A stretch of DNA of 64,000 bases from Felis catus. Taxonomy: Eukaryota. This document shows, in pieces, positions 1-50,559 of the stretch. The notes under the pieces are model-generated. The model saw nothing but the letters and a program-made list of their open reading frames with translations. It was not told the origin of the DNA and searched no databases. Numbering within the stretch: position 1 is the stretch's first letter; the number at the start of each line of letters is the position of its first letter. The translations under genes and the position numbers were made by a program. The stretch is from the NCBI RefSeq assembly GCF_018350175.1, contig NC_058368.1, forward strand, positions 84,446,001 through 84,510,000. The letters run 5' to 3'.

Positions 1-121
1 GACTATATGTGTGTGTGTATATATATATATATATATTTTTTCAAATATATATATTTATATATAGTCAAATATATATATTTATATATAGTCAAATTTATAT
101 ATATATATATAGTCAAATTGG

Positions 122-153
<32 letters not shown>

Positions 154-211
154 CTATAAGCCTTTTTCCAAAGGAAAAAAAAAAGTAGAGAAAAAAAGCC
201 TGATCCAAAGG

Positions 212-255
<44 letters not shown>

Positions 256-260
256 GAGAG
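1..260. repeat. (TA)n/(TG)n and (GA)n microsatellites
   Basis: TA-rich tract 4-155 with three internal tatatagtcaaat units; (GA)n at ~219-260. Confidence 0.9.
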
Positions 261-2061
261 AAAGGGAATGAAAACAAACGAAAACCTATAAGCCTGATCC
301 AAAGGGGGGGGCATAGTAAGACTAGTCCTATTTTCACCAGAATTGCAGGTAACATTTTGAAGTACTGTATGATAGTAGCCCTCCTCTGGAGTAGAGCCTC
401 TCCCTGCTGTGTCTATTGTCCTTTGTGCAGAAAACAGTCTCATGCCTATGCATTGCACAGAATCTGTGATGTAGCCCTGCAAAAAGCAGAAACCAGGTTA
501 TCTGGCTTCTGCACTTGCCTCTACCCTCTGCTGATGGAAGACCTTTTGCTGGCACCTGCAGGGTCTTTTGTCCTTGGAGAGGCATTATACCTTTTTCCAA
601 ATGGACTCAGGAAGGGCAATGTTCTCTCCTAGTGTGACCCAGGAGATCCCTATAGCATGCTATGCACTCCAGGGTCAGAGCCCCCCTTCTCCCCAGGAGT
701 GCACATCACATCTTTGCTGTGGAGAATGTTGCACACTTCAAAAACCTCAGATTTTGAGGTCTTCCCACTGTTTGCAGAAAACCTGGGACACCCAGTACAT
801 TTCACTCCCCAGTGCATGGTTCAGAGAGGTTTTCCTCCTGTGCTAACCTGATGCCACTCTCTGTCATCCCCCCTTTCTTTCTCTCTCTTTTGTCTCTGAA
901 CAGAAAGTGTTCCCTACCCTCTGTGGCACTGTAGATTTTTTCTCCTCTAATTCACTTCCACACTCCTTGCACCTGCCACCCTGCCTCCCTCCAACTGTGG
1001 AGATCCTCCTGCCACTCTGCAGATTGACTTCATGGGTATTCCAAGTGATCTGACCTCAATACAGCTGTGTTTGTGGGATGAGAAGGGAGCAGGTTTCCCC
1101 TACTTTTCTGCCATTTTAACTCTTATCCTTGACTGTTTGTTAAGAGAAGTTTGATAGAAAAAAATATTTAAAAAGATAACAAATTAAAAATACAAAAAAT
1201 AAAATATAAAAATTTGCTCCTCTTTGTCCAGGAAACAAACACACAAACAAGCAAAAAAAAAAAAGAAAAAAACAAAGGAAGATCAATTGTTTCCTCTAGA
1301 GCCAAAGATTTTCACCAATCTATGATTAGTAGACCTAGTACATGGAAAGTATTTGTGCTATTTATCTTGGTGGGCAGGGGGTGGGGGTTGCTGGTGCTCT
1401 GATTCTCAGGCCTTCTTGCCCTAGGGGAGATGTGCTTGGAGGATAAGAGGGGTGGAGCTTGGTGTAAGGGCTCTTGTACTCCCCTTGATGGCACTGTTTA
1501 GCTCACAGAGGTTGGTGTTGGTGGGCTAGGGATGGAAAACCTGCCTTCATCCTGTCTGTATCTGAGCTGTCTGCCAGTCAGGTTGTGCTGCCCTCCTGGG
1601 TTCTATCTCATGTTTCTAAAGCCCACACTTCAGACACCCCTGTAAGCCTGGACTCAAGCTGATCCTCTGGGAGAGGGTCTTGCTGCACTGTGGCAGGTAC
1701 TGATTTGTCCCAGAAAGCAATCGTGCAACTGCACAGTGGCAGTAGCTCAGAGTTTATGATAAATTGCAACACACAGCCAGTACCAGTGTTCGCTGCCCTC
1801 AGCCAGCGTCTTTGTTCCTATACTGGTGAACAGGACAGCACTATGGTGCCCACCATGTCTTATGCTTGTAGACAGGCCTTACCACCTCTACCAAATGTAC
1901 TCCAACAGGGGAACCGCTTCTCTTTGTGTGACCCAGAGGATCCTCAGAGCTTGCTGCCATTTTCGGGTTTCTACCCTGCTTCCTCACCAGAGCACTGCCA
2001 GATGCTGACCTCCAAAACTTTAGACTCTTCACTCTGCAGTTTATAAAAAACTGGTAGTACC

Positions 2062-2281
2062 GGGGCGCCTGGGTGGCACAGTCGGTTAAGCGTCCGACTT
2101 CAGCCAGGTCACGATCTCGCGGTCCGTGAGTTCGAGCCCCGCGTCGGGCTCTGGGCTGATGGCTCAGAGCCTGGAGCCTGTTTCCGATTCTGTGTCTCCC
2201 TCTCTCTCTGCCCCTTCCCCGTTCATGCTCTGTCTCTCTCTGTCCCAAAAATAAATAAACGTTGAAAAAAAAAATTAAAAA
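2062..2281 (+). mobile_element. Young felid Can-SINE (SINEC_Fc-like)
   Basis: GGGGCGCCTGGGTGGCACAGTCGG head, B-box GTTCGAGCCC, (CT)n, AATAAA and A tail, CpGs intact. Perfect 17-bp TSD aaaaaactggtagtacc at 2045-2061 and 2282-2298. Confidence 0.95.
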
Positions 2282-2979
2282 AAAAAACTGGTAGTACCAA
2301 AACCCTCTCCTTTTCCATGTCAATGGTTTTGATGAATAATTTTCTTGTGCAGTCCCCTGCGTGTGTTTTCACTCTTTTTTCTTCACTCTTAGCTCTTCTT
2401 CATGATCGGGGATCCCTTTCCACCCCAATGCCTACAGCTCTTTCTCCCCCAAATAAACTCTGCAGTTCCTACCTTCTATGGATAATTTTTTTTTTCTGTT
2501 TGTAGTTGTGCAGCTTTGCTAAGACTTCGGATTGATTTCTTGGGTGTTCACAATGATTTGATATTTATCTAGCTGTTTGCGGGAGGAGGAAAGCTAGGGT
2601 CACCCTACTCCTGTACCATCATAAATCTATTTTGAGCAAATCCCTGCCTGTGGTTTCCTCTACATCTTTATTTAAGGGAGAATTCTACCATCTGTCATTT
2701 TGTCTAGGTTTCTGTCTTTTGTGTGTTATGAAAACTTGTTATGTTTCTTGCTCCTGAGTGTAATGATATATTAAGAAAGGGTTATACACTGTCCAGAGCC
2801 TGGTGCTGCAGGAAGAGTTTCTGGTGTGTGCTATGTGCAACTCTGCTGCTGTGATTTGGCTGCTCTTTCCCCCAGTTCAGTCCTTTGCAGAGTTCCTTCT
2901 TGCTTACAGTGGGATGTTTAGACTTTTAACTAGTTTTTCTTTGATTTGCTTGTTAAAATAAGACTGATTTTTTAAATTT

Positions 2980-3290
2980 CTGGTCCAAAAAAAAGAGAGA
3001 GAAAAGGTAAAGGAACAACAACAACCCAACAAAAAACTTTAAGACAAAAAAAAGAAAGAAAGAAAGAAAGCAAAAAGAAGATAAATAAATAAATAAATAA
3101 ATAAATAAAGGAGGCTGATCCAAAAAAATCAGAAAAGGAAATAAAACAAGCAAAGAAAGAAAGAAAGAAAGAAAGAAAAGGAAAAGACAGGAAAGGAAAG
3201 GAAAGGAAAGGAAGGAAAAGAAAAGAAAAAAGAAAAGAAAAGAAAAAAGAAAAAAAGAAAAAAAAGAAAAGAAAAGAAAAAAGAAAGCCC
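2980..3290. repeat. Purine-rich microsatellite complex (GAAA, AAAT, GGAAA) inside an L1 5'UTR
   Basis: Directly visible tandem repeats. Confidence 0.9.
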
Positions 3291-4840
3291 GGTCCTATTT
3301 CCACCAGAATTGAAGCTGATGCTTTGGAGTACTCTGTGATAGTAGACTTGGCACATGCAGGGATGGGGTGGGGGGGGGCTGTGTTGGCCCTCAGAGGTAG
3401 AGGCCCACTGCACTGTCTTATAGTCAGACTTGCACCAGTGAAGATGTCCCTGCAGGGCACAGCAGGGTGGATTTGGTGTAGGTGGCTCCAGCCTCCCCTG
3501 GGGATGCTGTGTTGCTCATTGTACTGTGACTGTTCTCATGGGTGGGGGAGAAGGGAAAGATGGTGTCACCCCATTCTCTCTTCCCAGGGGAAGGTAGGTC
3601 TTGTCTGCCAATATTCAGGGGGGTCCTCACAGACCAGCGAACGATCTCCCCCTCCTGTGTTTCAGGCTTCCATCAGATCCCTGTCCTCAACCTCTGTGCC
3701 TAGGCCACCAATATGCGTGATGCCACACTTCTTTTGTGTTTGTTTTATCTCTGGTGTGCAGCCAGGATTCAAAACTTCAAATCTTAAAAACAAACAAACA
3801 AACAAACAAACAAAAAAACAGCAAAGCCTGGACCCTCTCCCTTTCTCTGGAGGAGAGCATCACAGTTCTGCTCCTGGTGTTGTTCTGTCCCAGAAAAGCA
3901 ATCGCATGCTGCACAGGTGCCTGGAGTTTATGGTGAAGCAAGGAGGCACGCTGAAACCAGGTATCCACCCTTTGCTTGTGCCTCTGTCCCCTGCTGTTGA
4001 AGCACCACTCAAAGGTACTAGCCTTTTTTTTTTTTTTTTTTTTTTATCTTCAGAGAGGCAATATAGCTTCTTCCAAATGCATTCCAGGAAGGGGAATGTT
4101 TTCTCCCAGTGTGACCCAGGGGATCCCCACACCACACTGTCCAGTGTGTGCTCTCAGGCCTCTGGCCTTCTTCTCCCCAGGAACACTGCTATCCCCTTGG
4201 TTCTACTTGGGAGAATGGTGCAAACTTTCAAAGCCTCCAAATTTTGGCTCAACTGTTTGCAAAAACTTGTGATAGTCAGTTCCTTCCGATTCCCCGGTGA
4301 ATGGTTTCGGGTAGTGCTTTTCTTGTGTGAACTCAATGCACTGCTCTCTCTTCCTCTCTTCTCCTCTCTTTGGAAAGGGCTCCCTCCCTTTTGTGGCTCC
4401 GTGGCTTTTCGCTTCCCCTTTTCATGTCCCCTCACCTGTACCTGCCACATTTTCTTCCTCAAGACATGAAGATTGTTCTCTTAATTCTCCAATTGATTTC
4501 CTAGGTGTTCAAATGATTTGGTGTTGATCTAGCTGTGTTTTAGGAGCAAGGCAAGTCCAGAGTCCCCCTAGTACTCTGCCATTTTAACTCCTTCCCAGTT
4601 ATAGCATTTTAAAATTTTGGCTTGACTAGTGTTTGTTTTTTTTTTAATCTGTCATAAGGGTTTCTCTAGTGTCTTCTGTGCTTTTCTCAAGCTCAGCTAG
4701 TTTACCTTATGATTATTGTTTTAACTTCTGGTTCAGATATCTTACTTATATCTGTGTTGATTAAACACCTGGAGATGACTTCTTCATATTCTTTCTTTTG
4801 GGGTGAATTTCCCTATCTTGTCATTTTGTCTGGATCACTG

Positions 4841-4876
<36 letters not shown>

Positions 4877-6229
4877 TTGTTAGGAAAGTCTGTTTGTGCC
4901 TTCTCCTGAAAATAAAAGCTATATTAAGAAGAGGCACAAAAAAAAAGGTAGCTAGATCTTATTTCCCCTATATCTGGGACTATGTAGCACTCTGATCAGT
5001 AGACTTTGTGGGTTTAGAGGGGTTTGTGCTGGGCTTCTGGGAGTGGAGCCTGCCGTGATTCTCAGGTGGACTCCCTCAAGTGGAGATGCACCTCCTTCAG
5101 GGGGCTGACATTCAGTGTAAGCAGCTCCAGCCTCCCCTTGGTGGTGCTGTTTTGGTCACTAAAGTTGGTCAGTGCTGATGGATGGGGGGGGGAGGGGAAA
5201 TGGCATTGCCCCACTCTTTGGTGCACAGAGCAGGGAGTTGACACTCTTTAGGAAGTTCTCACAGATGAACCAGCAATCACTTCTCTTATGTCCCCAGCTT
5301 CCACCAGATCCCTGTCTTCACCCTGCCTGTGTCCATTGTTCTGTCTGCCTACCAGGTAGCACAACACTCCTGTTTTATCTCAGACACATGGCTGGGTTTC
5401 AAAACTGCAAACTCCAAATTTTAGGGACCCAGACAACAGGGGCCCACAGTGATCCTCTGGGGGGAGAGTCTTGCTACGCTTACTCTGTTTGCCGGTTTGT
5501 CCTAGGAAAGTGATCACATGACTGTGGATCAGTTCAGAGTTTATGGTAAAGCACAGGACAAGCTAGCACCAGGTTTGCTGTCCTCAGCCAGTGTCTTTGT
5601 TCCTATGCCAGGGAACAGGACAGCCCAGTGGTGCTGCTGGTTCCTTTCGTCCCCAGAAAGATCATGCCGCCATTCCCAAATGCACTCCAAGGAGGGGAAA
5701 TTTTTCTCCCTGTGCGACCCAGGGGATCCTTAGATCACACTGCTTGCTTATGGATCTCTGCCCTCCTTCCCCATGAGAGCACCACTAAGCCTTCTGAAGC
5801 ATGATCTGGCCAAAAAAATGGACTACTAAAACTGCAAATTTTGTGCTCCCTGCTTATAATAACTTGTAATAGATCCCTCTCCTTTTCCTAGTCAATGGTT
5901 TTGGGGAAGAGTTTTTCTTATGCAGTCACCTGCATGTGCTTTCACTCTTTCTTCCTCTTTCTCTTTTGCTCCTCTCTCCATGATCAGGACTCCCTCCCCT
6001 CCACAGCACTTGCCCTTCTTTTCTCCACCAACTCAGCTCTCTGCAGCTCCTACCTTCCGTGATGTAGCTGTTTTCCTACCTCTAGATGTGCTGTTTGTTC
6101 TCTCAGACTTCAGATCAATTTCTTGGCCATTCAATATGGTTTGATATTTATCTGGCTGTATTCACAGGATGAAGCATGCATAGGGTTCCACTACTCCTTT
6201 ACCATATTAACTCCTTTAATCTAAAAATT

Positions 6230-6651
6230 TTTGCAAAGTATACATACAGATGGATACAGACACATGAAAAGATGCTCAATGTCACTGATTATCAGGGAAA
6301 TACAAATGAAAATCACAGTGAGATAACCACCTCATACCTCTCAGATTGGTTACAATTAATAACACAGAAAACAGCACATGTTGGCAAGGGTGTGGAAAAA
6401 GGGTAACCATCTTCCATTGTTGGTGTGAATACAAGCTAGTGAAGCAACTTTGGAACACAGTATGGAGGTTCCTCAAAAACTTAAAAATAGAAGTACCTTA
6501 CAACCCACTGATTGCACTACCAGGTATTTTCCCAAAGGATGCAAAAACACAGATTCAAAGGGGCACATGCACCCCAATGTTTATAGCAGCACTAACAATA
6601 ACCAAAGTAGGGAAAATGCGCAAATGTCCATTGACTGATGAATGGATGAAG

Positions 6652-6683
<32 letters not shown>

Positions 6684-10590: not shown

Positions 10591-12030
10591 CTTCATTTCT
10601 TTTTTTTTAAATTTCCTTTTTTTCTCACTATAATTCTTAATTTTAATTTTTAAAAATTTGCATCCAAATTTCTTAGCATATAGTGAAACAATGATTTCAG
10701 GAGTAGATTCCTTAGTGCCCCTTACCCATTTAGCCCATTCCCCCTCCCACAACCCTTCCAGTAACCCTGTTTGTTCTCCATATTTATGAGTCTCTTATGT
10801 TTTGTCCCCTTCCCTGTTTTTATATTATTTTTGTTTCCCTTCCCTTATGTTCATCTGCTTTGTCTCTTAAAGTCCTCATATGAGTGAAGTCATATATTTG
10901 TCTTTCTCTAATTTCACTCAGCATAATACCCTCCGGTTCCACCCACATACTTGTAAATGACAAGATTTCATTCTTTTTGATGCCGAGTAATACTCCATTG
11001 TATCTATATACCACATCTTTTCTAGCCATTCACCCATCAATGGACATTTGGGCTCTTTCCATACTTTGACTATTGTTGATACTGCTGCTATAAACATTGG
11101 GGTGCGGACTTTCAGGGAAGATGGCGGCGTAGGACGCTGGGCTCACTGCGCGTCCTGCTGATCACTTAGATTCCAACTACACCTGCCTAACTAACCCAGA
11201 AAACCACCAAAAGACTAGCAGAATGGAGTATCTGGAGCCCAGAGCAGACAAGAGGCCCACGGAAGAGGGTAGGAAGGGCGGAGAGGCGGTGCGCGCTGCA
11301 CGGACTGGCGGGAGGGAGCCGGGGTGGAAGGGCAGCCTGCCGGCCAAGCAGAGCCCTGAGTCTGGCTTGCAAAATCGGAGGGGACTGACGGAGTGTGTTC
11401 CGACAGCAAGCGCAACTTAGCATCTGGGAGGTCATAAGTGAACAGCTCTGCTCAGAAATCGGGGAGGCTGGAGGACGAAGGGAGGGAGAGTTGCTGAGCC
11501 CCAAGACGACGGAGCTCAGTTTGGCGGGGAACAAAGGCACTCGCCAGCGCCATCTCCCTCGCCCATCCCCCAGCCAAAATCCCAAAGGGAACCAGTTCCT
11601 GCCAGGGAACTTGCTCGCTCTGCGCAAACACCCAACGCTCTGCTTCTGAGGAGCCACCCCTCTGGCAGCAGGTCTGACTCCATCCCGCTGCCACAGGGCC
11701 CCTCCTGAAGTGGATCACCTAAGGAGAAGCGAGCTAAGCCTGCCTCTCCTGCCCCCGTGCACCTTGCCTACCCACCCCAGCTAATACGCCAGATCCCCAG
11801 CACCACAAGCCTGGCAGTGTGCAAGTAGCCCAGACGGGCCACGCCACCCCACAGTGAATCCCGCCCTAGGAGAGGGGAAGAGAAGGCACACACCAGTCTG
11901 ACTATGGCCCCAGCGGTGGGCTGGGGGCAGACATCAGGTCTGACTGCGGCTCCGCCCACCAGCTCCAGTTATACACCACAGCATAGGGGAAGTGCCCTGC
12001 AGGTCCGCACCACCCCAGGGACTATCCAAA

Positions 12031-12920
12031 ATGACCAAACGGAAGAATTCCCCTCAGAAGAATCTCCAGGAAATAACAACAGCTAATGAACTGATCAAAA
12101 AGGATTTAAATAATATAACAGAAAGTGAATTTAGAATAATAGTCATAAAATTAATCACTGGGATTGAAAACAGTATAGAGGACAGCAGAGAATCTCTTGC
12201 TAAAGAGATCAAGGGACTAAGGAGCAGTCACGAGGAGCTGAAAAGTGCTTTAAAAGAAATGCAAAACAAAATGGAAACCACGATGGCTCGGATTGAAGAG
12301 GCAGAGGAGAGAATAGGTGAACTAGAAGATAAAGTTATGGAAAAAGAGGAAGCTGAGAAAAAGATAAAAAAATCCAGGAGTATGAGGGGAAAATTAGAGA
12401 ACTAAGTGATACACTAAAAAGAAATAATATATGCATAATTGGTATCCCAGAGGAGGAAGAGAGAGGGAAAGGTGCTGAAGGGGTACTTGAAGAAATCATA
12501 GCTGAGAACTTCCCTGAACTGGGGAAGGAAAAAGGCATTGAAATCCAAGAGGCACAGAGAACTCCCTTCAGACATAACTTGAATCGATCTTCTGCACAAC
12601 ATATCATAGTGAAACTGGCAAAATACAAGGATAAAGAGAAAATTCTGAAAGCAGCAAGGGGTAAACGTGCCCTCACATATAAAGGGAGACCTATAAGACT
12701 CGTGGCTGATCTCTCTTTTGAAACTTGGCAGGCCAGAAAGGATTGGCACGAGATCTTTAATTTGCTGAACAGGAAAAATACGCAGCTGACAATCCTTTAT
12801 CCAGCAAGTCTGTCACTTAGAATAGAAGGAGAGATAAAGGTCTTCCCAAACAAACAAAAACTGAAGGAATTTGTCACCACTAAACCAGCCCTACAAGAGA
12901 TCCTAAGAGGGATCCTGTGA
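12031..12920 (+). pseudogene. L1 ORF1p, frameshifted near 12365
   Basis: MTKRKNSPQKNLQE coiled-coil part and C-terminal part (...TTKPALQEILRGIL) lie in different frames. Confidence 0.92.
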
Positions 12921-12970
12921 GACAAAGTACCAGAGACATCACTACAAGCATAAATCATACAGACATCACA

Positions 12971-15900
12971 ATGACTCTAAACCCGTATCTTTCTACAATA
13001 ACACTGGATGTAAATGGATTAAATGCACCAACCAAAACACATAGGGTATCAGAATGGATAAAAAAACAAGACCCATCTATTTGCTGTCCACAAGAGACAT
13101 GTTTTAGATCTGAGGACACCTTTACATTGAGAACTATTTATCATGCTACTGGAAGCCAAAAGAAAGCTGGAGTAGCCATATTTATATCAGACTAACTAGA
13201 CTTTAAATTAAAGGCTGTAACAAGAGATGAAGAAGGGCATTATATAATAATTACAGGGTCTATCCACCAGGAAGAGCTAACAATTATAAATTATGCACCG
13301 AATACCGGAGCCCCCAAATATATAAAACAATTACTCATAAACATAAGCAACCTTATTGATAAGAATGTGGTAATTGCAGGGGACTTTAACACTCCACTTA
13401 CATAAATGGATAGATCATCTAGACACATGGTCAATAAAGAAACAAGGGCCCTGAATGAGACATTGGATCAGATGGACTTGACAGATATATTTAGAACTCT
13501 GCATCCCAAAGCAACAGAATATACTTTCTTCTCGAGTGCACATGGAACATTCTCCAAGATAGATCATATACTGGGTCACAAAACAGCCCTTCATAAGTAT
13601 ACAAGAATTGAAATTATATCATGCATACTTTCAGACCACACTGCTATGAAACTTGAAATCAACCACAGGAAAAATTCTGGAAAACCTCCAAAAGCATGGA
13701 GGTTAAAGAACACCCTACTAAAGAATGAGTGCATCAACCAGGCAATTAGAGAAGAGATTAAAAAATATATGGAAACAAACGAAAATGAAAATACAACAAT
13801 CCAAACGCTTTGGGATGCCGCGAAGGCAGTCCTGAGAGGAAAATACATTGCAATCCAGGCCTATCTCAAGAAACAAGAAAAATCCCAAATACAAATCTAA
13901 CAGCACACCTAAAGGAAATAGAAGCAGAACAGCAAAGGCAGCCTAAACCCAGCAGAAGAAGAGAAATAAGAAAGATCAGAGCAGAAATAAACAATATAGA
14001 ATCTAAAAAAACTGTAGAGCAGATCAATGAAACCAAGAGTTGGTTTTTTGAAAAAATAAACAAAATTGACAAACCTCTAGCCAGGCTTCTCAAAAAGAAA
14101 AGGGAGATGACCCAAATAGATAAAATCATGAATTAAAATGGAATTATTACAACCAATCCCTCAGAGATACAAACAATTATCAGGGAATACTATGAAAAAT
14201 TATATGCCAACAAATTGGACAACCTGGAAGAAATGGACAAATTCCTAAACACCCATACTCTTCCAAAACTCAATCAGGAGGAAATAGGAAGCTTGAACAG
14301 ACCCATAACCAGTGAAGAAACTGAATCAGTTATCAAAAATCTCCCAACAAATAAGAGTCCAGGACCAGACGGCTTCCCAGGGGAGTTCTACCAGATGTTT
14401 AAAGCAGAGATAATACCTATCCTTCTCAAGCTATTCCAAGAAATAGAAAGGGAAGGAAAACTTCCAGACTCATTCTATGAAGCCAGTATTACTTTGATTC
14501 CTAAACCAGACAGAGATCCAGTAAAAAAAGAGAACTACAGGCCAATATCCCTGATAAATATGGATGCAAAAATTCTCAATAAGATACTAGCAAATCGAAT
14601 TCAACAGCATATAAAAAGAATTATTCACCATGATCAAGTGGGATTCATTCCTGGGATGCAGGGCTGGTTCAACATTCGCAAATCAATCAACGTGATACAT
14701 CACATTAATAAAAGAAAAGGTAAGAACCATATGGTCCTGTGAATCGATGCAGAAAAGGCCTTTGACAAAATCCAGCACCCTTTCTTAATAAAAACCCTTG
14801 AGAAAGTCGGGATAGAAGGAGGATACTTAAACATCATAAAAGCCATTTATGAAAAGCCTACAGCTAACATCATCCTCAATGGGGAAAAACTGAGAGCTTT
14901 TTCCCTGAGATCAGGAACACGACAAGGATGCCCACTCTCACCGCTGTTGTTTAACATAGTGTTGGAAGTTCTAGCACCAGCAATCAGACAACAAAAGGAA
15001 ATCAAAGGCATCAAAATTGGCAAAGATGAAGTCAAGCTTTCGCTTTTTGCAGATGACATGATATTATACATGGAAAATCTGATAGACTCCACCCAAAGTC
15101 TGCTAGAACTGATGCATGAATTCAGCAAAGTTGCAGGATACAAAATCAATGTTCAGAAATCAGTTGCATTCTTATACACTAACAATGAAGCAACAGAAAG
15201 ACAAAGAAACTGATCCCATTCACAATTGCACCAAGAAGCATAAAATACCTAGGGATAAATCTAACCAAAGATGTATAAGATCTGTATGCTGAAAACTATA
15301 GAAAGCTTAAGAAGGAAATTGAAGAAGATATAAAGAAATGGAAAGACATTCCCTGCTCATGCATTGGAAGAATAAATATTGTCAAAATGTCAATACTACC
15401 CAAAGCTATCGACACATTCAATGCAATCCCAATCAAAATTGCACCAGCATTCTTATCGAAACTAGAACAAGCAATTCTAAAATTCATATGGAACCACAAA
15501 AGGCCCCAAATAGCCAAAGTAATCTTGAAGAAGAAGACCAAAGCAGGAGGCATCACAATCCCAGACTTTAGCCTCTACTACAAAGCTGTCATCATCAAGA
15601 CAGCATGGTATTGGCACAAAAACAGACACATAGACCAATGGAATAGAATAGAAACCCCAGAACTAGACCCACAAACATATGGCCAAGTAATCTTTGACAA
15701 AGCAGGAAAGAACATCCAATGGAAAAAAGACAGTCTCTTCAACAAATGGTGCTGGGAGAACTGGACAGCAACATGCAGAAGGTTGAAACTAGACCCCTTT
15801 CTCACACCATTCACAAAAATAAACTCAAAATGGATAAAGGACCTAAATGTGAGACAGGAAACCATCAAAACCCTAGAGGAGAAAGCAGGAAAAAACCTCT

Positions 15901-16772
15901 CTGACCTCAGCCGTAGCAATCTCTTACTCGACACATCCCCAAAGGCAAGGGAATTAAAAGCAAAAATGAATTACTGGGACCTTATGAAGATAAAAAGCTT
16001 CTGCACAGCAAAGGAAACAACCAACAAAACTAAAAGGCAACCAATGGAATAGGAAAAGATATTTGCAAATGACATATTGGACAGAGGGCTAGTATCCAAA
16101 ATCTATAAAGAGCTCACCAAACTCCACACCCGAAAAACAAATAACCCAGTGAAGAAATGGGCAGAAAACATGAATAGACACTTCTCTAAAGAAGACATCC
16201 GGATGGCCAACAGGCACATGAAAAGTTGCTCAACGTTGCTCCTCATCAGGGAAATACAAATCAAAACCACACTCAGATATCACCTCATGCCAGTCAGAGT
16301 GGCCAAAATGAACAAATCAGGAGACTATAGATGCTGGCGAGGATGTGGAGAAATGGGAACCCTCTTGCACTGTTGTTGGGAATGCAAATTGGTGCAGCCA
16401 CTCTGGAAAGCAGTGTGGAGGTTCCTCAGAAAATTAAAAATAGACCTACCCTATGACCCAGCAATAGCACTGCTACGAATTTATCCAAGGGATACAGGAG
16501 TACTGATGCATAGGGGCACTTGTACCCCAATGTTTATAGCAGCACTCTCAACAATAGCCAAATTATGGAAAGAGCCTAAATGTCCATCAACTGATGAATG
16601 GATAAAGAAATTGTGGTTTATATACACAATGGAGTACTATGTGGCAATGAGAAAGAATGAAATATGGCCCTTTGTAGCAACGTGGATGGAACTGGAGAGT
16701 GTGATGCTAAGTGAAATAAGCCATACAGAGAAAGACAGATACCATATAGTTTCACTCTTATGTGGATCCTGA
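12971..16772 (+). pseudogene. L1 ORF2p (endonuclease, reverse transcriptase, Cys domain), disrupted
   Basis: Motifs FSKIDHILG/SDH (EN), [23 protein letters not shown] (RT) and HCCWECKL. Broken into many track ORFs by stops (e.g. 14134, 14740, 16050) and frameshifts. Confidence 0.94.
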
Positions 16773-20678: not shown

Positions 20679-21309
20679 ACGTGTGCACCTTAATGTATTG
20701 ACAGTAACCACAAAATGTTAGTGCCTCCTGGTCACAAGAATGCCTTGTGTGCACACTATCACCAATTCCCATGGAAACTGTTGAGGTTTTCTACCCAGGC
20801 AATTGTGGTCTGAAAGGTCAGAGTTTGGCCCTGGGAACATCCTCTGCCAGCTCAGTTGGGCACCAGACAAACATGGCAGATCGACTGGATTCCATATTTA
20901 TGGAAGCTCAGTTGCCTCTGGGAATATCTCCTGGCAGCTCAAGTTGATGTGCCTTGTAAAAGAATGCCAATTAGATTTGAAAGTTTGAATGCAGAAAGTG
21001 TGGAAGTCAGAACTGAGAAGAACTTACTTATAGCCCTTGGAAATGTGAGAAGGACAGAGACTTCAAAGGATTCATGGAGAGCATGCTTATTTATTTATTT
21101 ATTTATTTTTTTGCATTGTCCCTGAATGTTGCCAAAAGTTTGCTTCGAATGACACTGCTGATACCAAATCTGTTAAATAACAAGAACTCAACAGAATAAA
21201 TTTAAAAATCTAATTGGCTTTATATATTGATTCATGAATCACACAGCATCCTGTCTGGAAAGTAGAGGGGAGTTCCAAAGGTCTACAGAAAAGGGAAGAA
21301 AAATTAAAC

Positions 21310-39923: not shown

Positions 39924-39971
<48 letters not shown>

Positions 39972-39997: not shown

Positions 39998-40093
39998 TAA
40001 AAATGTGATTTACTTTCCTCATCTTTTAATGCACAAGATGGTTGCTACTGGGGCTGCTTCAGTCCCTGCAAGCCTTCCCACTCCAGGAGTCTT

Positions 40094-40498
40094 TTTGTTT
40101 GTTTGTTTCAAATTTTATTTAAATTCTAGTTAGTTAACATATAGTGCAATATCGGTTTCAGTAGTAGGATTTAGTGATTCATCACTCACAGATAACACCT
40201 AGTGCTCATCACAAGTGTCCTCCTTAATGCCCACCACCCAGTTAGCCCATCTCCCCACCCACCTCCAACCCTCCAGCAACCCTCAGTTTGTTCTTTATAG
40301 TTAAGAGTCTCTTATGGATTGCATCTCTCCTTTTGTTTTATTCCTTCTTCTATGTGCATCTCTTTTTTTTTTCTAATTCCACATATGAGTGAAATCATAA
40401 GGTATTTATCTAACTGAATTATTTCACTTAACACACTCTACCTCCATCTACGAATTTGCAAATGACAAGATTTCATTCTTTTTAATAACTAATATTCC

Positions 40499-40536
<38 letters not shown>

Positions 40537-42023
40537 CACGACATCTTTATCCATTTATCAATTGATGGGCATTTGGTCTCCTTCTATAATTTGGCTATTA
40601 TTGATAATGTTACTATAAATATGAGGTGCACATGCCCCTTAGAATCTGTGTTTTTGTATTCTTTGCATAAATACCTAGTAGTACAACTGCTGGATCATAG
40701 GGTAATTCTATTTTTAACTTTTGAGGAACCTTCATCTCTTTTAGAGTGGCTGCACCAATTTGCATTCCAACCATCAGTGAAAGAGAGCTCCCCTTTCTCT
40801 GCATCTTCTCCTATATCCGTTGTTTTCTTGTGTTAATTTTAGCCATTCTGACAGGTGTGAGGTGGTATCTCATTGTAGTTTTGATTTGTATTTCCTTGAT
40901 GAGTGGTTTTGAACATCTTTTCATGTTTCTGTTAGCCATTGGGATGTCTTCATTGGAGAAGATTCTATTCATGTCCTCTGCCAGTTTTTTAACTGGATTA
41001 TTTTTTTGGGAGTATTGCAGTTTATAAGTTCTTTATAGATTTGGATACTAACCCTTTATCAATCAGATATGTCATTTGGAAATATCTTCTCCCATACCCT
41101 AGGTTGCCTTTTAGTTTTGTTGATAGTTACCTTTGCTGTGCAGGACCTATTTATCTTCTTCAAGTCCCAGTAGTTCATTTTCACTTTTGTTTCTGTGCTT
41201 CCAGTGATGTATCTAGTAAGAAGTGGCTATGGCCAGCGTCAAAGAGGTTGCTGCCTGTATTCTCCTCTAGGATTTTGATGGTTTCCTGTCTCACATTTAG
41301 GTCTTTCATCCATTTTTAATTTATTTTTGTGTATGGTACAAGAAAGTGGTCCAGGTGTGTTCTTCTGCATGTTGCTGTCCAGTTTTCCTAACACCATTTG
41401 TTGAAGAGTCTGTCTCTTCATTGGATGTTCTTTCCTGCTTTATCAAAGATTAGTTTTACATACATCTATGGGTCTCTTTCTGGGTTCTCTGTTTCACTGA
41501 TCTTTTTGTCTGTTTTTATGCTAGTACCATACTGTATTGATGACTACAGCTTTGTAATACAGCTTCATGAAATCAGAAATTGTGATGCCTCCAGCTTTGG
41601 TTTTCATTTTCAATATTACTTTGGCTATCTGGGGTCTTTTTTGGTTCCGTACAAATTTTGAAATTGTTCTAGGCCTGTGAAATATGCTAGAGTTATTTTG
41701 ATACAGATTGCATTCAATGTAAAGATTGCTTTGGATAGTATAGACATTTTTACAGTATTTGTTCTTCCAGTCCATGAGCATGGAATGTTTCTCCATTTCT
41801 TCAGTTTTCTTCAATTTCTTGCATAAACATTCTGTAGTTTTCAGTGGACAGATCTTTTGCTTCTTTGGTTGGGTTTATTCCTACGTATTTTATGGTTTTG
41901 CTATAATTGTAAATGGGATTGAGCCCTTCATTTTCTTCTGCTTCATTATCGGTGTATAGAAATTCAATCGATTTCTTTATGTTAATTTTATTTTACTAAA
42001 AAAAATTTTTAATGCTTATTATT

Positions 42024-42059
<36 letters not shown>

Positions 42060-45000
42060 CAAGCAGGGAAGGGGCAGAGAGAGAGAGACACAGAATTGGC
42101 AGCAGGCTTCAGGCTCTGAGTTGTCAGCACAGAGCCGAATGTGGGGCTCGAACTCACAGACCACAAGATCATGACCTGAGCTGTAGTCGGCCGCCCAACT
42201 GACCGAGTCACCCAAGCGCCCCTACATTGATTTTATATCCTGTGACTTTGCCAAATTCATGTATCGGTTCTAGCAGTATTTTGGTGGAGTTTTTTGAGTT
42301 TTCCACATAGAGAGCGTATCATGTCATCTGCAAAGAGTGAAAGTTTGACTTCTTTCTTGCCATTTTGGATGCCTTTCATTTGTGTTGTCTGATTGCTGAG
42401 GCTAGGACTTCCATTACTATGTTGAACAACAGTGGTGAGAGTGTACATCCCTCTCATGTTCCTGACCTTAGGGGAAAAGCTGTCAGTTTTTCCCCATTGA
42501 GATTGATACTAGCTGTGGGTCTTTCATATGTGGCCTTTATTATGTTGCATTATGTTCCTTCTATCCCTACTCTCTGGAGGATTTTTATCAAGAAAGGATG
42601 CTGTATTTTGTCAAATGCTTTTTCTGCATCAATTGAGAGGATCTTATGGTTCTTATCCTTTATTAATGTGGTGTTATGATGTTGATTTGCGAATATTGAA
42701 CCAGCCCTGCAGCCCAGGAATATATCCCACTTGATAATGGTGAATAATTCTTTCAATGCATTGTTGGATTCAACTTGCTAGTATCTTGTTCAGAATTTTT
42801 GCATCCATGTTCATCAAGGAGATTGGTCTTTAACTTTTACAGACACCCTTTTTAGTGGGAACTTTGTCTGGTTTTGGAATCAAAGTAATACTGGCTTCAT
42901 AGAATGAGTTTGGAAGTTTTCCTTCCATTTGTATTTTTTGGAACAGGTCCAGAATAATAGGTATTATCTCTTCTTTAAATGTTTAGTAGAATTCCCTTGG
43001 GAATCCATCCACCCTTAGACCCTTGTTTGTTGGGAGATTTTTGATTACTGATTGAATGTCTTTGCTGTTTGAATTTTCTATTTCTTCCTGTTTCATTTTT
43101 GGTAGTTTGTGAGTTCCTAGGAAATTGGTCCATCTTCCAGATTGCCCTGTTTGTTGGCATATAATTTTCATAGTATTCTCTTATTATAGTTTTCATTTCT
43201 GTGAGTCGGTTGTGATCTCTCCTCTTTCATTCGTGATTTTATTTACTTGGTCCTATTCCTTTTTCTTTTTAATAAATATGGCAAGGAGTTTATCAATTTT
43301 GTTAATTCTTTCAAAGAACCGGCTCCTGGTTTCATTGATCTGTTCTGTTTTTGTTTTGTTTTGTTTTGTTGATATCATTGATTTCTGCCCTAATCTTTAT
43401 TATTTTCCTCTTCTTCTGGTTTTGGACTTTATTTGCTGTTGTTTTTCCAATTTCTTTAGGTATAAGGTTAGGTTATGTATCTAAGAATTTACTTCCTTAT
43501 TTAGGAATGTCTGGATTGCTATATACTTTCCTCTTATGACTGCCTTTGTTGAATCCCAAAGGTTTTGGACAATAGTGTTTTCCCATGTGTTTTCCCACAT
43601 GGCTCCCATGTGTTTTTAAATTTCTTTTTTACTTTCTTCGTTAACCCATTCATTCTTTAGTAGGATTTATTTTTTTTTAATGTCCAAATATTTGTGGTCT
43701 TTCCAAACATTTTTTCTTGTGGTTGATTTCAAGTTTCATAGTGTTTTTGTCTAAAAATATGCATGGTATGATGTAAATCTTTTTGTACTTGCTGAGTGCT
43801 GATTTGTGACCCAATATGTGATCTTTTCTGGAGAATGTTACATGTGCACTGGAAAAGAATGTGTGTTCTGCTACTTTAGGATGAAATGTTCTGAATATAA
43901 TTGTTAAGTCCATCTGGTGCATTGTATCAGTCAAAGCGATTATTTTCTTTCTTGTTGATTTTCTGTTTACATGATCTGTCCATTGTTGTAATTTGGGTGT
44001 TAAAGTCCCCTACTACTATGGTATTTTTATCAATGGGTTTCTTTCTGTTTGTGATTGATTTATAATTTGGTTGTTCCCAACTTGGCAGCATAGATATTTA
44101 CAACTGTTAGATCTTTTTTGTAGATAGACCCTTAATTATTATATAATGCCCTTCCTCATCTCTTGTTACAGTCTTTGTTTTAACATCTAGTTTGTCTGAT
44201 ATAGGTATGTTTATTCTGGCTTTCTTTTAATGTCCATTGCCACGATAGATGGTTTTCCATCGCTTTACATTCAATCTGCATATGTCTTTAGGTTTAAAAT
44301 GAGTCTCTTGTAATTAGCATATAAATGGGTGGGTTTTTTTTTTTTTTAAATCAATTCTGATACCCTATGTCTTTTGATTGGAGCATTCAGTCCTTTTACA
44401 TTTAGAGTGATTATTGGAAGATATTAATTTAGTGCCATTGTGTGTCCTGTAGAGTTGGTGTTTCTGTTGATGTTCTCTCTGGCCCATTCTAATCTTTGTT
44501 GCCTTTGGTCTGATTTTTGTTTGTTTGTTTTGTTTTTTCTCCACTCAAAAGTCCTCCTTATGATTTCTTGCAGGGCTGGTTTTGTTTGGGGAACTATTTA
44601 TCTCTTTTTCTATTCTGAATGACAGCCTTTCTAGATAAAGAATTCTTGGCTGCATATTTTTCCTATAAGCACGTTGAATATATACTGCCACTCCTTTCTG
44701 GTCTGCCATGTATCTGTGGAATATCCACTGCAAGCTTGATCTGTCTTCCCTTGTGGGTTAAGGACTTTTTTCCTTGCTGCTTTCAGGGTTCTTTCCTTGT
44801 CTGTGTTTTGTGAATTTGACTATGATATGCCGTAGTGATGTTGGTTTTTGTTAAATCTAATGGGAATTCTCTGTGCTTCTTGAATTTTGATATCTGTATC
44901 TTTACCCAGATTAGGAAAGTTTCAGCTATAATTTGCTAACATAAACCTTCTGCCCCCTTTTCTCTTTCCTTATTTTCTGTGATTCCTATGATACAAATGG

Positions 45001-48000
45001 TATTCCTCTTTAATAATTTATATTCTCTCAGTCTTGTATCATAGTCTTTTGCCTTTGTTTCCTTCTTTTTTTCTGTTTCCTTATTTTCCATAATTTTATC
45101 TTCTGTATTATTGATTCTCTTCTCTGCTTTGTCTATCTTTGCCAACAAGGTGTCCATTCAAGATTACATCTTGGTTGTAGCATTTTTAATTTTGGCCTGA
45201 CTGTATTTTAATTCTTTTATCTCTGCAGAAAGGGATTCTCTGGCATCTTCTGTGCTTTTTTCAACTCCAACTAATATTATTATACTTGTGGTTTGAAATT
45301 CTAATTCACTCATGATTCTTATATCTGTGTTGATTAAATCCCTGGCCATCATTTTTTCATGTTCTTTCTTTTGGGGTGAATTCCTCTGTCTTGTCATTTT
45401 GGAGGCAAAAAAATAAAATAAAATAAAAAATTAAAATTAAAAAATTACAAACAAGATAATACAATACAAATCAAATAATGGAAGCTAGATACTAGGTGTG
45501 TTTTTTTTTTAATTTTTTTTAATGTTTATTTATTTTTGGAGAGACAGAGCATGAGCAGGGGAGGGGCAGAAGAGGGAGTCACAGAACTTGAAGCAGGCTC
45601 CAGGCTCTGAGCTGTCAGCACAGAGCCTAATTCAGGGCTCGAACTCACGAGCTGTGAGATCATGACCTCAGCTGAAGTCAGACACTTAACCAACTGAGCC
45701 ACCCAGGTGCCCCTAGGTGTGTTTCTTTCTTCTTGTTGAGAGGTTGATAGAAAAGAGAGAAAAAAAAGGAAAAAAAAAAAACTATAAACAAAATTAAAAA
45801 AAAATTTTAATGTTTATTTATTTTTGTGAGAGAGACAGAGCATGACTGGGGGAGGAGCAGAGAGAGAGGGAGACACAGACTCGGAAGCAGGCTCCAGGCT
45901 CTGACCTGTCAGCATGGAGCCTGACATGGGGCTCGAACTCACAAACCGTGAGATCATGACCTGAGCCAAAGCCGGATGCTCAACTGACTGAGCCACCCAG
46001 GCGCCCCCATAAACAAAATTTTAAATTGAAAAATACTGTTCTTAAGTAATAGAATAAAATAAGGAAAATAAAAAAAAATAAAAAATTGCTTTTTCTGTAT
46101 CCAAGAAAGAGAAAAGAATGAAGGAAAAAAAAAGATAAGCAAAAACAGAAGGAAAGAAAACGAACAAACAAATGAAGAAGCAAACAGAATGAAACCTGAA
46201 TGAAGTACATTCATTTTCCCCTAGGATGAAATCTTCGTAAGACACTATAATTCATAGACTAAGTAGGTGGAAGGATTTGTCCTGGTCTTCTGGGGCATGT
46301 GCCTAGAGGGCACAGCTGGGTGGGGCGTGGGGTAACTGTTTCTGTTCTCCATTTGGTGGCACTGCTTAGCTTATGGGTGTCGATCAAGGAGTGCATCCAT
46401 GCATGTATGCTTGTTAGTGGTGAGAATGACTTCACAGAGCTCTCTAGTGTCTGATGTGGGAATTTTTGCCCTTGTGGACATGCATTCAAGTGCCTCTCCT
46501 TGGTCTCAGGCCTCTATCTGCTCCCTGCCTTCACCCTGTCTGTGTCCAAGCTGTGTCCCTTCCAGGTGGCACCTCCCTCCCGAGTTTTATCTCACACAGA
46601 GCTGTGTTTCAAAACCCCTCACTTCAGAGATCCCTGTGGCTTGGACCCATGCTAATGCTTTGGGGAAGGGTGTCCACAGAAAACATTTGCACGATCCCAC
46701 AGCAGCAGAGGCTCAGAGTTTATGGTGAATCACAGCACATATCCTGTACAGGTCATGGTGCACTCTGGCATCTTTGTTTCAGTACTACAGCTACATGGTA
46801 GCTCTCTGGGATATGCCAGGAATTTTGCCCATGGGGAAGCCTATGGCCTCTACCAAGTACACTCCAATCAGGAGAACCACTTTTCCCCAGGTGGCACATG
46901 GACCCCTCAAACCATGCTTCCTGCTCCTGGGGATTCACCTGACTTACTCACCAGAGCACCGCCAAGCACTGAGCTCCAAAACTTCAGATTCTGTCCTATT
47001 ATAGAATATAGCTATATATAGAATCCTGGTGGTATTGAAATCCCCTCCTTTCTTCCATCAGTGGTTTTTGTGAACAGATTTCTTGTCTAGTCCCATGCGA
47101 GTGTTTTCACTCTTTCTTTCTTTCTCTCCAGCTACTTTTGGGGGGAGTGCTTTTCTTGCATGATCCTGATGTGCTGCCTTCTCCCCAGTCCTCTCTCTGC
47201 AAAAATGAGTTCCTACCCTCTACGGCTCCTCAGCTTTTCTCCCCCCAGTCCACCTCTCCACACCATGTACCTGCTAAGTTCTCTGATTCAAATTATGCAG
47301 ATTGTTGCAATAATTCTCAGATCAATTTCCTAAGTGTTCAAAATGGTTTGATGCTGATCTAGCTGTGTTTCAGGGACAAGACAAGCTCAGAGTCCCCTTA
47401 CTGCTCTGCCATCTTAACTCCTACCTGTCTGGGAAACTCTTTATCTCTCCTTCTATTCTAAATGGCAGCATTGCTGGATAAAGTATTCTTGGCTGCGTAT
47501 TTTCCCCATTTACTTTGAATATATCATGCCACTCCCTGCTAGTCTGCCAAGTTTCTGCTGATAAGTATGCTAACCTTATTTGTCTTCCCTTATGACTTAG
47601 GGATTTCTTTTTCCTTGCTGCTCTCAGGATTTTTTCCTTAACTCTGTATTTTGCAAATTTTTCTACAATATGTCTTGGTGTTGCCCTGCTTTTGTTGATT
47701 ATGGTGGGAGTTCTCTGTGTGTCCTTGACTTGAATGTTTGTTTCCTTCCCCAGATTAGGGACATTTTCCACAATAATTTGCTCATATAAGTTTCTGCCCC
47801 TGTTTTCCTCTCTTCTTCTGGCACTCCTGTGATACAAATGTTATTACGTCTTATGGAGTTGCTGAGTTCCCTGTGTCTACATTCTGATCTAATGTTTTCT
47901 TTCCCTATTCTTCTCAGCTTTATTATCTTCCATAATTTTATCTTACATTATCACTTACTCATTCCTCTGCTTCTTCCATTCTCATGGTCATTTCTTAGAG

Positions 48001-49988
48001 TCGGTTTCACATCTCAGTTATAGCATTTTTTATTACTGTCTGACTAGTTTTTAGATTTTTTTTTTTAATTTTTTTTTTCAACGTTTATTTATTTTGGGGA
48101 CAGAGAGAGACAGAGCATGAACGGGGGAGGGGCAGAGAGAGAGGGAGACACAGAATCGGAAACAGGCTCCAGGCTCCGAGCCATCAGCCCAGAGCCCGAC
48201 GCGGGGCTCGAACTCCCGGACCGCGAGATCGTGACCTGGCTGAAGTCGGACGCTTAACCGACTGTGCCACCCAGGCGCCCCTAGATCTTTTATCTCTGTG
48301 TTAAGAGACTCCTTGGTGTCTTCTATGCTTTTCTCAAGCCCAGCTATATCCTTATGATTGTTGTTTTAAATCCTGGTACAGGCATATTACTTATATCTAT
48401 TTTGATTAGATCTCTGGCTATGACCTTTTCTTATTTTTTGTTTTGTGATCCATTTCTCCATCTTGGCACTTTGCTTTCGTCTCTGTTTTCTCTGTGTTAG
48501 GAAAGCCTGTTATATTTCCTGCTTCTGAGAGTAAAGGCTATATTAAGAAGATGCTATACACTGACCCCGGCGTGGCGCTCCAGGAAGTGTTTCTGGTGTG
48601 CAGTTTGTATACTCTGCTTTTGTGTTTTAACTGCTCTTTCCCTCACGTCAGTCCTCTGCAGTTTCGCCTTGTCTGTACTGGGTTGTGTTTGGGCCTTGCC
48701 CAGTGTGTGGTGAGTTTTAACTCGGTGTGTTTTGGTCTGCTTGTTCAAAAGGCCAGATCCATTTTCCACTAGAGCTGAAGTTTTGCATCACTCCATTGTC
48801 AGTAGACTTGGTAGGTGCAAGGGGTTTGTGCTCGTCTTCTAGCAGAGGGACCTGCTTCTGCTCTGGCTCTCAGGCACAATTGCACTCATGAAAAAGCACC
48901 TGCAGAGCCTACAGGGGCGGGTCTTGAGTAAGTGGCTCAGGCCTTGTGTGTGCTGTGTTGCTCACTTAAGTCTGTCTGTGCTGATAGGTGAGGAATTAAT
49001 ATAGTTTCAGCCCACTGTCTTCCTGCAGAGGCGTTTGCGCCCACTGATGTTCAGGAAACCCTCACTGAAGATCGAACAATCTCCCCTCCTGTGTCCCAGG
49101 AATCCCTCAGATCTCTCTGCCTTCACCCATTCTGTGTCTGAGCCTTTTGCCCACCCAGCATCATGGTCCTGTGCTAGACACAACCTGTGCTGAGTTTCAG
49201 AACTCCAAAGGGACCTGGCATGGTTGGCCCTGCACTAATCATCTGGGGTGGGGTCTCACTACACTGTGGCTGGTGCCTGCTTGTCTCAGAAGGGCAGTCA
49301 CAGAATGTGCGGCCACTTGGAGTATGGTAAAGCACAGCGAAAGGCTGATTTTCAGGTTACCTGGTCTCAGCAGGTGTCTCTGCTCCTATTGGAATGAATA
49401 GGGTAGCTCAGTGGCACCCGCTGCCAGTGCCACCTCTCTCAAATGCACTGTAAGGAGGAGATCTGTCTGTCCCAGTGTGGCCCAGGGTATCTGCAGACCA
49501 TCTGTCTTCTCCCAGGCCGCTGCCCTCCCTCTCAACAGAAGCACATCTGTGCTGGTCAGGTTCTGTCTCTGGTCATGGCATGGACTTCTAAAACTTCTGA
49601 CTTTGAGTTCCACTGCTTGGAAAAACTTGGCAATAGTCAGCCCCAATTGTTTTGCTTCTCAGTGGTTTTGGGGAAGTGTTTTTCTTGTGCAGTGCCCTGC
49701 ATGCACATGCTTTCTCACATGTGCTCTCTGTCTCTGAATCTCTTTCCTGTGTGATCAGGGCTCCTTACCCCCCACAGCACCCATGATTCTTTTCTCGGTA
49801 ATCACTTCTCTGCACCTCCTCCCTTCCACAGTGTGGCCTCTTTTATCCCTGTAGTTGTGCAGTTTGTTCTCTCAGTCCTCAGATTCATTTCTTGGGTGTT
49901 GGAATGGATTTGATATTAGACTAGCTATGTTTGATGGACAAAGTAAGTATAGGGTCCCCCTACTACTCTGACATCTAAATCCTGTCCT
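40094..49988 (-). mobile_element. Composite two-headed LINE-1 in PGBD2 intron 2: 5'UTR-A, truncated ORF1-A, 5'UTR-B, ORF1-B, ORF2, 3'UTR
   Basis: 14-bp TSD actccaggagtctt at 40080-40093 and 49989-50002. Head B ends at 47422, ORF1-B starts at 45397, ORF1-A remnant spans 47423-48470. SINEs at ~42005-42222, 45505-45713, 45806-46008 and 48057-48281. Confidence 0.88.
48057..48281 (-). mobile_element. Young felid Can-SINE
   Basis: Nearly identical to the 2062-2281 copy, CpGs intact; tagat.tttt on both flanks. Confidence 0.94.
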
Positions 49989-50559
49989 ACTCCAGGAGTC
50001 TTAACAACTATGTACAGAAAGTTTTTGGAGGCATGGGGGCACACAGGAGCTTAGTGAGAGTGGTGGAAACCCTGACTCTATAGGCCTGGATCTGCTGCTC
50101 GAAAATAGGAGAGGCTGAGAAGATGGCAAGTTGTCTACTGACCCCTGAGAACCTCTCAGTCTGAGGTCCATGGGAAGTGCTTCAGATTTCCTATCCCTGA
50201 AAGCTGGGTTCCCTTTCTGGCATAGCATGAGAAATACCTTGCCTTCCCTGAGGTCAGATCTCCTGTGCCCTAGTAGACTCTAGCACAGAGGCTGATGGAG
50301 TCCATGTTCACCAAATGAGGTTGTAGTGAATCTCTAAGGCAGTGAACTCCCAAGTCCAAGGGTAGGTCTGTAGAGAAATAACCTTTTCGGTAAAGCTTGT
50401 GTCTTTCCTCTGGTTTGAGATTCTTCTCATGTGGAGGTTGGGCCAGAGTGACACAGGGCAGCAGTAGAGCCCACCTTCCTTGCCCGTCCATTCTCATAGC
50501 CAGTGATGTGCGTCACTGCCCCTTCTGCATCCTACTAGAGGGCTTCCTGTGACAGCTGA

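Follow-up and report, generated by a model that had tools for sequence, protein, structure and literature searches.

A head-to-tail stack of four diverged L1 5' ends in the genome of Felis catus

How L1 elements acquire new promoters is an open question, for which three routes have been proposed (PMC3600994). A stretch of 64,000 nucleotides of the Felis catus genome, here called the window, raises a related question: by which route do several L1 promoters come to lie directly one behind another? No description of stacked L1 promoters was found in the literature searched, which included few subscription papers and no Repbase or Dfam notes. An earlier note, made from the sequence alone, had described four diverged L1 5' ends arranged head to tail on the minus strand. 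These units (A to D) and their three junctions were recovered within a few bases of the positions given there (Table 1). The ~75 ORF1 codons claimed for unit A proved to be 76 (4824-4597), the ~23 codons of unit B about 24 (2698 to ~2625), and the break of unit C in its T-rich tract was located at the distal end of that tract, at 1129. The four-unit L1 stack is real.

Table 1. Features of the stack and of the related composite at 47426 (positions within the window)
Feature	Position	Strand	Evidence
Unit A: carnivore-type old L1 5'UTR and first ~76 ORF1 codons, cut	4597..6217	-	UTR and ORF1 identity, translation
Unit B: second promoter type, full 5'UTR with T-rich tract and ~24 ORF1 codons, cut	2625..4596	-	70% to 61014 copy
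Unit C: A-type 5'UTR, cut at end of T-rich tract	1129..2628	-	69% to 38030 copy
Unit D: B-related 5'UTR, then T-tract, then TA microsatellite, running off the window	1..1128	-	72% to 58291 copy
SINE of young carnivore type, later insertion into unit C, 10-bp duplication	2062..2287	+	98% identical to SINE 48056-48281
Stack host: piece of L1 ORF2 3' region, antisense to its sense copies	6222..6656	+	74-78% identity to L1 3' regions 30450-30880, 52407-52843, 16175-16608
A/B junction: perfect TT|AAAA endonuclease motif 14 nt before the end of A	4597..4612	-	1-2% of background
X, upstream piece: L1 5'UTR and ORF1 cut about 80 nt short of its end	47426..49988	-	
Y, downstream piece: complete L1 starting at exact 5' terminus	40094..47425	-	
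Left copy of single 14-bp TSD around X+Y, TT before it	49989..50002	-	
Right copy of X+Y TSD, directly after A-tail of Y	40080..40093	-	

The ORF1 starts of A and B align with ORF1 of full L1s in the window, as expected of mammalian L1 5' ends. These full L1s align with a young element whose ORF1 matches the Pfam families Transposase_22 and Tnp_22_dsRBD; the 70-aa N-terminal ORF1 piece alone gave no family match. The named subfamily of these 5' ends may be L1_Carn or a similar one. Unit A begins at ~6217-6214, its ORF1 part contains stops and a frameshift and matches the beginning of ORF1 in the elements at 45401 and 36297 at 75-76% identity, and its 5'UTR is 69% identical to the copy at 38030. 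Unit B begins at 4596, its ORF1 ends at ~2629-2625, and its alignment to ORF1 of the 61014 copy stops at the B/C junction. The terminus of unit C (2628-2624) overlaps the last bases of B in a short homeologous patch, and unit D begins at 1128. Internal deletions are present in A (in the T-rich part), C (near 1540) and D (~500 nt at ~379). The L1 piece hosting the stack is broken at the 5' end of A and its other half is absent from the window. ORF1 past codon ~76, ORF2 and 3'UTR were not found in 1-1165 or 1260-6222, where the remaining matches are SINEs.

Several independent post-insertion deletions outside L1 biology, or a misassembly, could be thought to produce such a picture: old L1s are dense here, the internal deletions are joined by one more in an element at 58291, and the junctions are those given by the assembly. 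Four random breakpoints would not, however, all fall within a few bases of an L1 5' terminus, and assemblers do not collapse units that differ by 34-48%. Moreover, 0.88-0.95 of 645 31-mers sampled from 300-6300 were present in 20 of 24 listed runs, from nine studies (the other four runs were not indexed, and one holder is possibly the source sample); this shows that the sequence exists, while such words do not prove contiguity across junctions. Rearrangement or misassembly is therefore very improbable.

Along the stack two promoter types alternate, A and C being of one type and B and D of the other. This alternation would be accounted for if one promoter unit, or A and B as a pair, had been tandemly duplicated in place. 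The earlier note had regarded the units as clearly diverged and named near-identity as the mark of duplication; pairwise UTR identities among A-D are in fact 51.5-65.8%. A and C (65.8%) and B and D (65.4%) are less alike than each unit is to its closest copy elsewhere in the window (69-72%), and the cut points differ. Duplication was rejected on these grounds and its probability is practically negligible. That units of different types each lie nearest a distant copy supports instead the nesting of one L1 in another.

We propose that the stack probably arose as full-length L1s were inserted one after another, each on the same strand and into the A-rich zone that follows the promoter of its predecessor, the host bodies being off the window or deleted by recombination. 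Unit A would have been inserted into an older L1, unit B, full-length and on the same strand, into ORF1 of A, unit C into ORF1 of B, and unit D into the late UTR of C. The GC-rich promoter front offers almost no endonuclease sites and the A-rich sense strand behind it many. TTAAAA occurs only 0-1 times per 1.3 kb in UTR fronts, and its sense to antisense ratio is 12:1 and 7:1 in two old L1 coding regions. Given this observed distribution, each host would keep its promoter and the guests would share their orientation. The 3' remainders of the hosts may lie left of the window, or may have been removed by recombination between long same-direction bodies, a process resembling solo-LTR formation; deletion during insertion is the alternative. 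Insertion behind the promoter followed by recombinational loss would thus yield the same picture without template jumps or promoter capture. L1s inserted into other L1s of the human genome show a 2.18-fold bias towards the sense orientation (PMC2836564). Among deletions caused by recombination, nested Alus occur more often than expected (PMC2517846), and deletions of this kind have also been described for L1 (PMC3543922). The window itself holds nested insertions with both halves and a TSD at 11106-17025 and, by eye, at 35040-34070, and the 58291 element has lost its body at a homeologous patch, as expected from nesting with recombinational loss.

At all four junctions, those of the stack and X/Y at 47426, the host is cut at the 5' end of the guest, as nesting demands. 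The spacing of the A/B endonuclease motif is that of the left TSD copy of B, and an equal score is reached at 1-2% of 4894 background positions. TSD length peaks at 14-16 bp for full-length L1s (PMC2912911), so that a motif 14 nt before the cut supports nesting; same-strand insertion predicts just this signature. Other observations argue against it. Only one of the four junctions, A/B, has a significant motif: scores at C/D (14-25% of background) and X/Y (34-55%) lie within background, and that at B/C corresponds to 8% or ~90% depending on the cut point within the overlap, a cut at 2629 giving no motif and one at 2625, chosen after the sequence was seen, a motif at 9 nt. ORF2 offers the larger target, yet all four junctions lie before it, and B/C shows microhomeology, which is not typical at 5' junctions of full-length L1s (PMC2912911). 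At local density, the chance of one such guest per given element is 5-27%, which favours nesting; three guests in a row have a chance of 1e-4 to 2e-2 per starting element, lower still at a density of 1 per 50 kb, which does not. Insertion of a 3'-truncated L1 at the target site of the previous element was also considered and rejected, since the bases before each terminus continue the host sequence.

The earlier note had likened the joining within the stack to that at 47423, and the anatomy is the same. There, Y consists of a mosaic 5'UTR, ORF1, ORF2, 3'UTR and A-tail, and the two TSD copies agree at 14/14 positions, a length reached by 1 of 2984 random window pairs. One TSD, after TT, thus encloses both X and Y, as expected of a single-event chimera. 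The tail of Y is followed neither by a remainder of X, no L1 body being detected in 38850-40078, nor by a host remainder with a TSD of the guest, so that plain nesting fails at this site. With its one TSD and without any remaining host body, X/Y is more than ordinary nesting. The host remainder has been lost here; recombination may be the cause. A change-point test at 631 sites, of low power, detected no crossover in the body of Y (permutation p 0.27), and X-type and Y-type ends could not be told apart in the 3'UTR alignment.

A first rival to nesting is joining in one event: reverse transcriptase would copy a full-length L1 RNA to its cap and jump to another L1 RNA in the same particle, landing on a 3'-cut end or an internal point, or the RNAs would be ligated first; repeats of this would build the stack, and it may hold for only some junctions. 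Besides the TSD around X+Y, the exact 5' terminus at every join and the B/C microhomeology fit such an event. So does decay, which is indistinguishable between X (0.14) and Y (0.13); with values of 0.16, 0.14, 0.21 and 0.19 for A to D, and errors of 0.03-0.04, the overlapping estimates do not order A to D, or X and Y, by age, which also speaks against nesting, and the ORF1 tree gave no well-supported order. ORF2p forms template-jump concatemers in vitro (PMC10830420). In human chimeras a single TSD encloses transcript 5' pieces joined to near full-length L1s; where the L1 begins within its first 10 bp, some of these chimeras lack splice sites (PMC13174262). Yet a single event leaves the A/B motif without a reason and would require co-expression of three promoter types, ~12 kb of copying and three jumps; only 17 mRNA/lncRNA chimeras are reported for the human genome (PMC13174262), against four junctions in one window. 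Inspection by eye showed no GT splice donor at the start of the host continuations, and splicing was therefore rejected as the way in which the pieces were joined. We consider one-event joining unlikely.

In a third route, transcription of a guest nested in the 5' part of an older L1 would start, at the source locus, from the promoter of that older L1, and both would then be retrotransposed together as a 5' transduction, perhaps in several rounds. It would account jointly for the one TSD, the missing host remainder, the promoter-near junctions and the retained endonuclease motif, and has precedents in RAP1GDS1 promoter co-option (PMC13174262) and in a horse L1 family that carries ~1200 bp of additional sequence upstream (PMC5872511). 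Repeated junctions would then be predicted, whereas the four all differ and none recurs within the 64-kb window, and RNAs of 8-12 kb would have to be copied in full. Nor was a paralogue found, in collections with essentially no carnivore DNA: among these metagenome, viral and prokaryote sets, a degenerate 22-base 5'-terminus motif gave two loci, chance matches without similarity to the window, in metagenome contigs and none in viral contigs, and an ORF1 query on prokaryote genomes left 1 of 186 candidates confirmed, a 490-bp contig with an ORF1 fragment without flanks. Such promoter capture is distinctly unlikely.

Serial nesting, the reading we prefer, finds its closest relatives in same-strand nested L1-in-L1 insertions (PMC2836564, PMC2517846), which are alike in orientation, in the host cut inside, in the guest starting at its 5' end and in endonuclease-site logic. 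The stack differs in being three levels deep with all guests 5'-complete, and X/Y in lacking a host remainder and a right TSD of the guest's own. Same-type sense self-insertions were ignored in PMC2836564, as stated there. Chimeric L1s with 5' transductions (Law and Burns 2026, PMC13174262) resemble X/Y in a sense transcript 5' piece, a near full-length L1, one TSD and an endonuclease motif; here the 5' piece is an L1 promoter with ORF1 of 1.5-2.5 kb, whereas upstream segments in that study were limited to <1000 bp and an L1/L1 class is absent from the sections covered, and the parts joined here may have arrived at different times. U6/L1 and other template-switch chimeras (PMC4476161) are likewise sense fusions under one TSD, with tripartite cases explained by double switching or two independent insertions, but they join a small RNA to an L1 that has in most cases lost its 5' end. 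Families with recruited 5'UTRs (PMC3600994, PMC5872511, PMC5381506) share the coexisting promoter types and a mosaic promoter, as in Y; recruitment replaces the promoter of a propagating family, whereas the stack shows serial addition with no evidence of propagation. L1s without a 3' part also arise through recombination-associated and insertion-mediated deletions (PMC3543922) and through endonuclease-independent insertions (PMC1920257), the latter without TSDs and clustered in the L1 3' half, in contrast to the 5' pieces, and the TSD of X, found here.

Published pipelines for nested or chimeric insertions overlook an L1 promoter piece joined to a whole L1 inside one TSD, and a census of such composites would tell DNA-level collapse from RNA-level joining. 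If serial nesting holds, the stack is a remarkable but neutral accumulation, and nested L1s may collapse much as LTR elements do when they leave solo LTRs; loss of the host's back half at X/Y hints at how L1 may swap promoters. The recurrent promoter stacking that the earlier note suggested for this L1 lineage may or may not have occurred. A bolder and doubtful idea is that in early carnivore L1s finished full-length cDNA was often joined, end to end, to a 5' piece of a second L1 RNA, or that outer promoters repeatedly carried nested guests. Promoter stacks in one TSD, invisible to pipelines, would then occur genome-wide as fossil intermediates of 5'UTR swapping between coexisting families.

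Two further candidates in the window were discarded: the 61014 element is not 3'-truncated, its ORF1 continuing to ~63670 before being interrupted, and a putative older 5' end within the ORF2 fragment at ~29345 scored no better than shuffled sequence. The observed/expected CpG ratio is 0-0.14 in A, B, D, X and Y versus 0.46 in a young L1. Promoters so depleted of CpG are expected to have no present function; all units are dead fossils.

The L1 5' ends at the left end of the window, which the earlier note had described as a four-unit head-to-tail stack, are confirmed as such, and alignment has located their units (A to D) and junctions. At the junctions A|B, B|C and C|D, the upstream, cut element (host) aligns with the continuation of its intact relatives as far as the cut, and the element that starts there (guest) aligns from its conserved 5' terminus. 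Later L1 parts were looked for in 1-1165 and 1260-6222 and not found. A fraction of 0.88-0.95 of 645 words sampled from 300-6300 was present in 20 of 24 listed sequencing runs (9 studies), supporting the existence of the stack sequence, not the contiguity of its junctions. Random deletion or misassembly is a very improbable source of the arrangement. The 5'UTR of unit D lacks about 500 nt near 379 (- strand); by eye, the gap ends close to a candidate GT and AG of unit B, and unit D may be a spliced copy.

Coordinates of the stack units and of the two-part analogue X|Y
Unit	Extent	Strand	Description
A	~6217 to 4597	-	cut after ~76 ORF1 codons
B	4596 to ~2625	-	cut after ~24 ORF1 codons
C	~2628 to 1129	-	cut at far end of T-rich tract
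D	from 1128	-	exits window within TA microsatellite
X	49988 to junction 47426	-	L1 5'UTR and nearly all of ORF1
Y	junction to 40094	-	complete L1; X joined to its first base

The nine old 5'UTRs of the window were compared. Those of A-D are mutually 51.5-65.8% identical, which bears out their supposed clear divergence, and their nearest neighbours lie outside the stack: the copy at 38030 for both A and C (69.3% each), that at 61014 for B (69.9%) and that at 58291 for D (71.8%). Tandem duplication of stack units was therefore rejected and is almost certainly not their origin. B, D, 58291 and 61014 split from the other five with support of 100/100. Promoter types alternate along the stack, so that under any model two promoter groups would have overlapped in time. 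The decay estimates of all units overlap (0.14-0.21 in the UTRs; ORF1 0.142 in X and 0.125 in Y; errors 0.03-0.04), which makes age order unreadable. Measurement of five old UTRs, those of A, B, D, X and Y, showed CpG depletion in each, the mark of long-dead copies. The 5'UTR of Y (46200-47425, -) is itself mosaic, its first ~230 nt being of B/61014 type (77.5%) and the remainder of A/C/38030 type; it may belong to a recombinant family or be a chimera formed locally.

X|Y, an upstream L1 piece joined to a complete L1, is flanked as a whole by an exact 14-bp repeat, at 50002-49989 (preceded by TT) and 40093-40080 (immediately past the tail of Y), a length attained by 1 of 2984 random window pairs. 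Beyond Y, neither an L1 body (38850-40078) nor the right-hand partner of a TSD specific to Y turned up. Simple nesting that retained both halves thus fails here, unlike at a control with a 16-bp TSD, the young full-length L1 at 11106-17025 (+). This element lies antisense inside an older L1; its promoter is GC-rich and unrelated, and its ORF1 is frameshifted. The proposal of a joining beyond ordinary nesting consequently finds its strongest support at X|Y, with one TSD and no host body; as to mechanism, X|Y is compatible with joint arrival of X and Y or with later deletion of the remainder of X. Capture of an upstream promoter accounts for every X|Y feature and has precedents (excerpts of PMC13174262 and PMC5872511), but it should produce repeated junctions and none recurs within 64 kb; scans of outside collections with essentially no carnivore DNA gave two chance hits and one 490-bp ORF1 fragment. 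Overall, this capture is quite improbable.

The best reading, somewhat likelier than not, is that full-length L1s inserted serially, each on the same strand inside the previous element and directly behind its promoter. A guest close to the host 5' end would create ~4.5-kb direct repeats, whose recombination would leave a promoter piece, the whole guest and the host TSD, as at X|Y. Excerpted reports describe a 2.18-fold sense bias of human L1-in-L1 insertions (PMC2836564), a 14-16 bp peak of TSD lengths for full-length L1s (PMC2912911) and over-representation of nested Alus in recombination deletions (PMC2517846). The element at 58291 (51470-58291, -) shows body loss in this region: a homeologous patch of ~20 nt near 56700 is where its late UTR meets the 3' end of an L1, and both ORFs are gone. 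Within that 3' end lies a less decayed 5'-truncated L1 (56600-52010), followed by another short 3' end; a possible TSD (11/14) is seen near 51484.

Two old coding regions carry TTAAAA with a sense bias of 12:1 and 7:1, whereas UTR fronts have almost none. At A|B a perfect motif lies 14 nt ahead of the cut, equalled by 1-2% of 4894 background positions, a figure that weakens to about 4-8% once four junctions are allowed for; at the remaining three the endonuclease motif does not stand out from background, nor do established insertions of this window reach better scores. The A|B motif is not predicted by template jumping or RNA joining, and three jumps in a single event would be a lot; this origin is unlikely, although it agrees with the microhomeology at B|C, with the in vitro concatemers of ORF2p (PMC10830420, excerpt) and with 17 human one-TSD chimeras fusing transcript 5' pieces to near full-length L1s (PMC13174262, excerpt). 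Against serial insertion, all four junctions lie before ORF2, and under a rough model at local density each starting element has a probability of 1e-4 to 2e-2 of taking up three guests in series: rare, yet reachable when a scan selects striking windows. Nor did Y yield a significant crossover signal (p 0.27, low power). Mixed histories of the junctions are possible.

The stack and X|Y work in the same way as nested L1 insertion, and X|Y resembles a 5'-transduction chimera in appearance; the stack is assignable to neither class, as its deciding 3' side lies beyond the window. We came across no description of L1 promoters stacked in series, in literature thinly covered for subscription papers and repeat-database notes. 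As excerpted, one nesting pipeline left out same-type sense self-insertions (PMC2836564), and a chimera pipeline accepted only upstream segments <1000 bp and shows no L1/L1 class (PMC13174262); both are blind to an L1 piece joined to a whole L1. The interpretation in the earlier note is thus partly supported, and a recurring promoter-stacking route linked to L1 5'UTR swapping is conceivable but doubtful.

The window is carnivore DNA rich in L1, with SINEs that we take to be felid-type. An intact piggyBac-derived ORF of 583 aa (58543-60294, +) matches Pfam DDE_Tnp_1_7 and presumably resembles PGBD2; a CpG island lies 34 kb upstream (23950-24800). Every large old L1 between the two lies on the other strand, the pattern that an intron inflated by L1 should show. 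An old full 5'UTR with its ORF1 occupies 61014-63670 (+); close to where ORF1 ends, the element is interrupted by the 3' end of an antisense L1 and by a SINE at the edge of the window. A supposed older L1 5' end after an ORF2 endonuclease-domain fragment (29150-29560, -), picked by eye, aligned no better than shuffles and was rejected. Two diverged direct repeats (19345-19645 and 21171-21691; 72-76%), ~1.5 kb apart, have an inverted third relative at 22672-22857 in an LTR-like layout. Elsewhere, a 490-bp low-coverage contig of a Streptococcus assembly (L003, 1-490) codes for a piece of mammalian L1 ORF1 (54% identity) and is probably host contamination.
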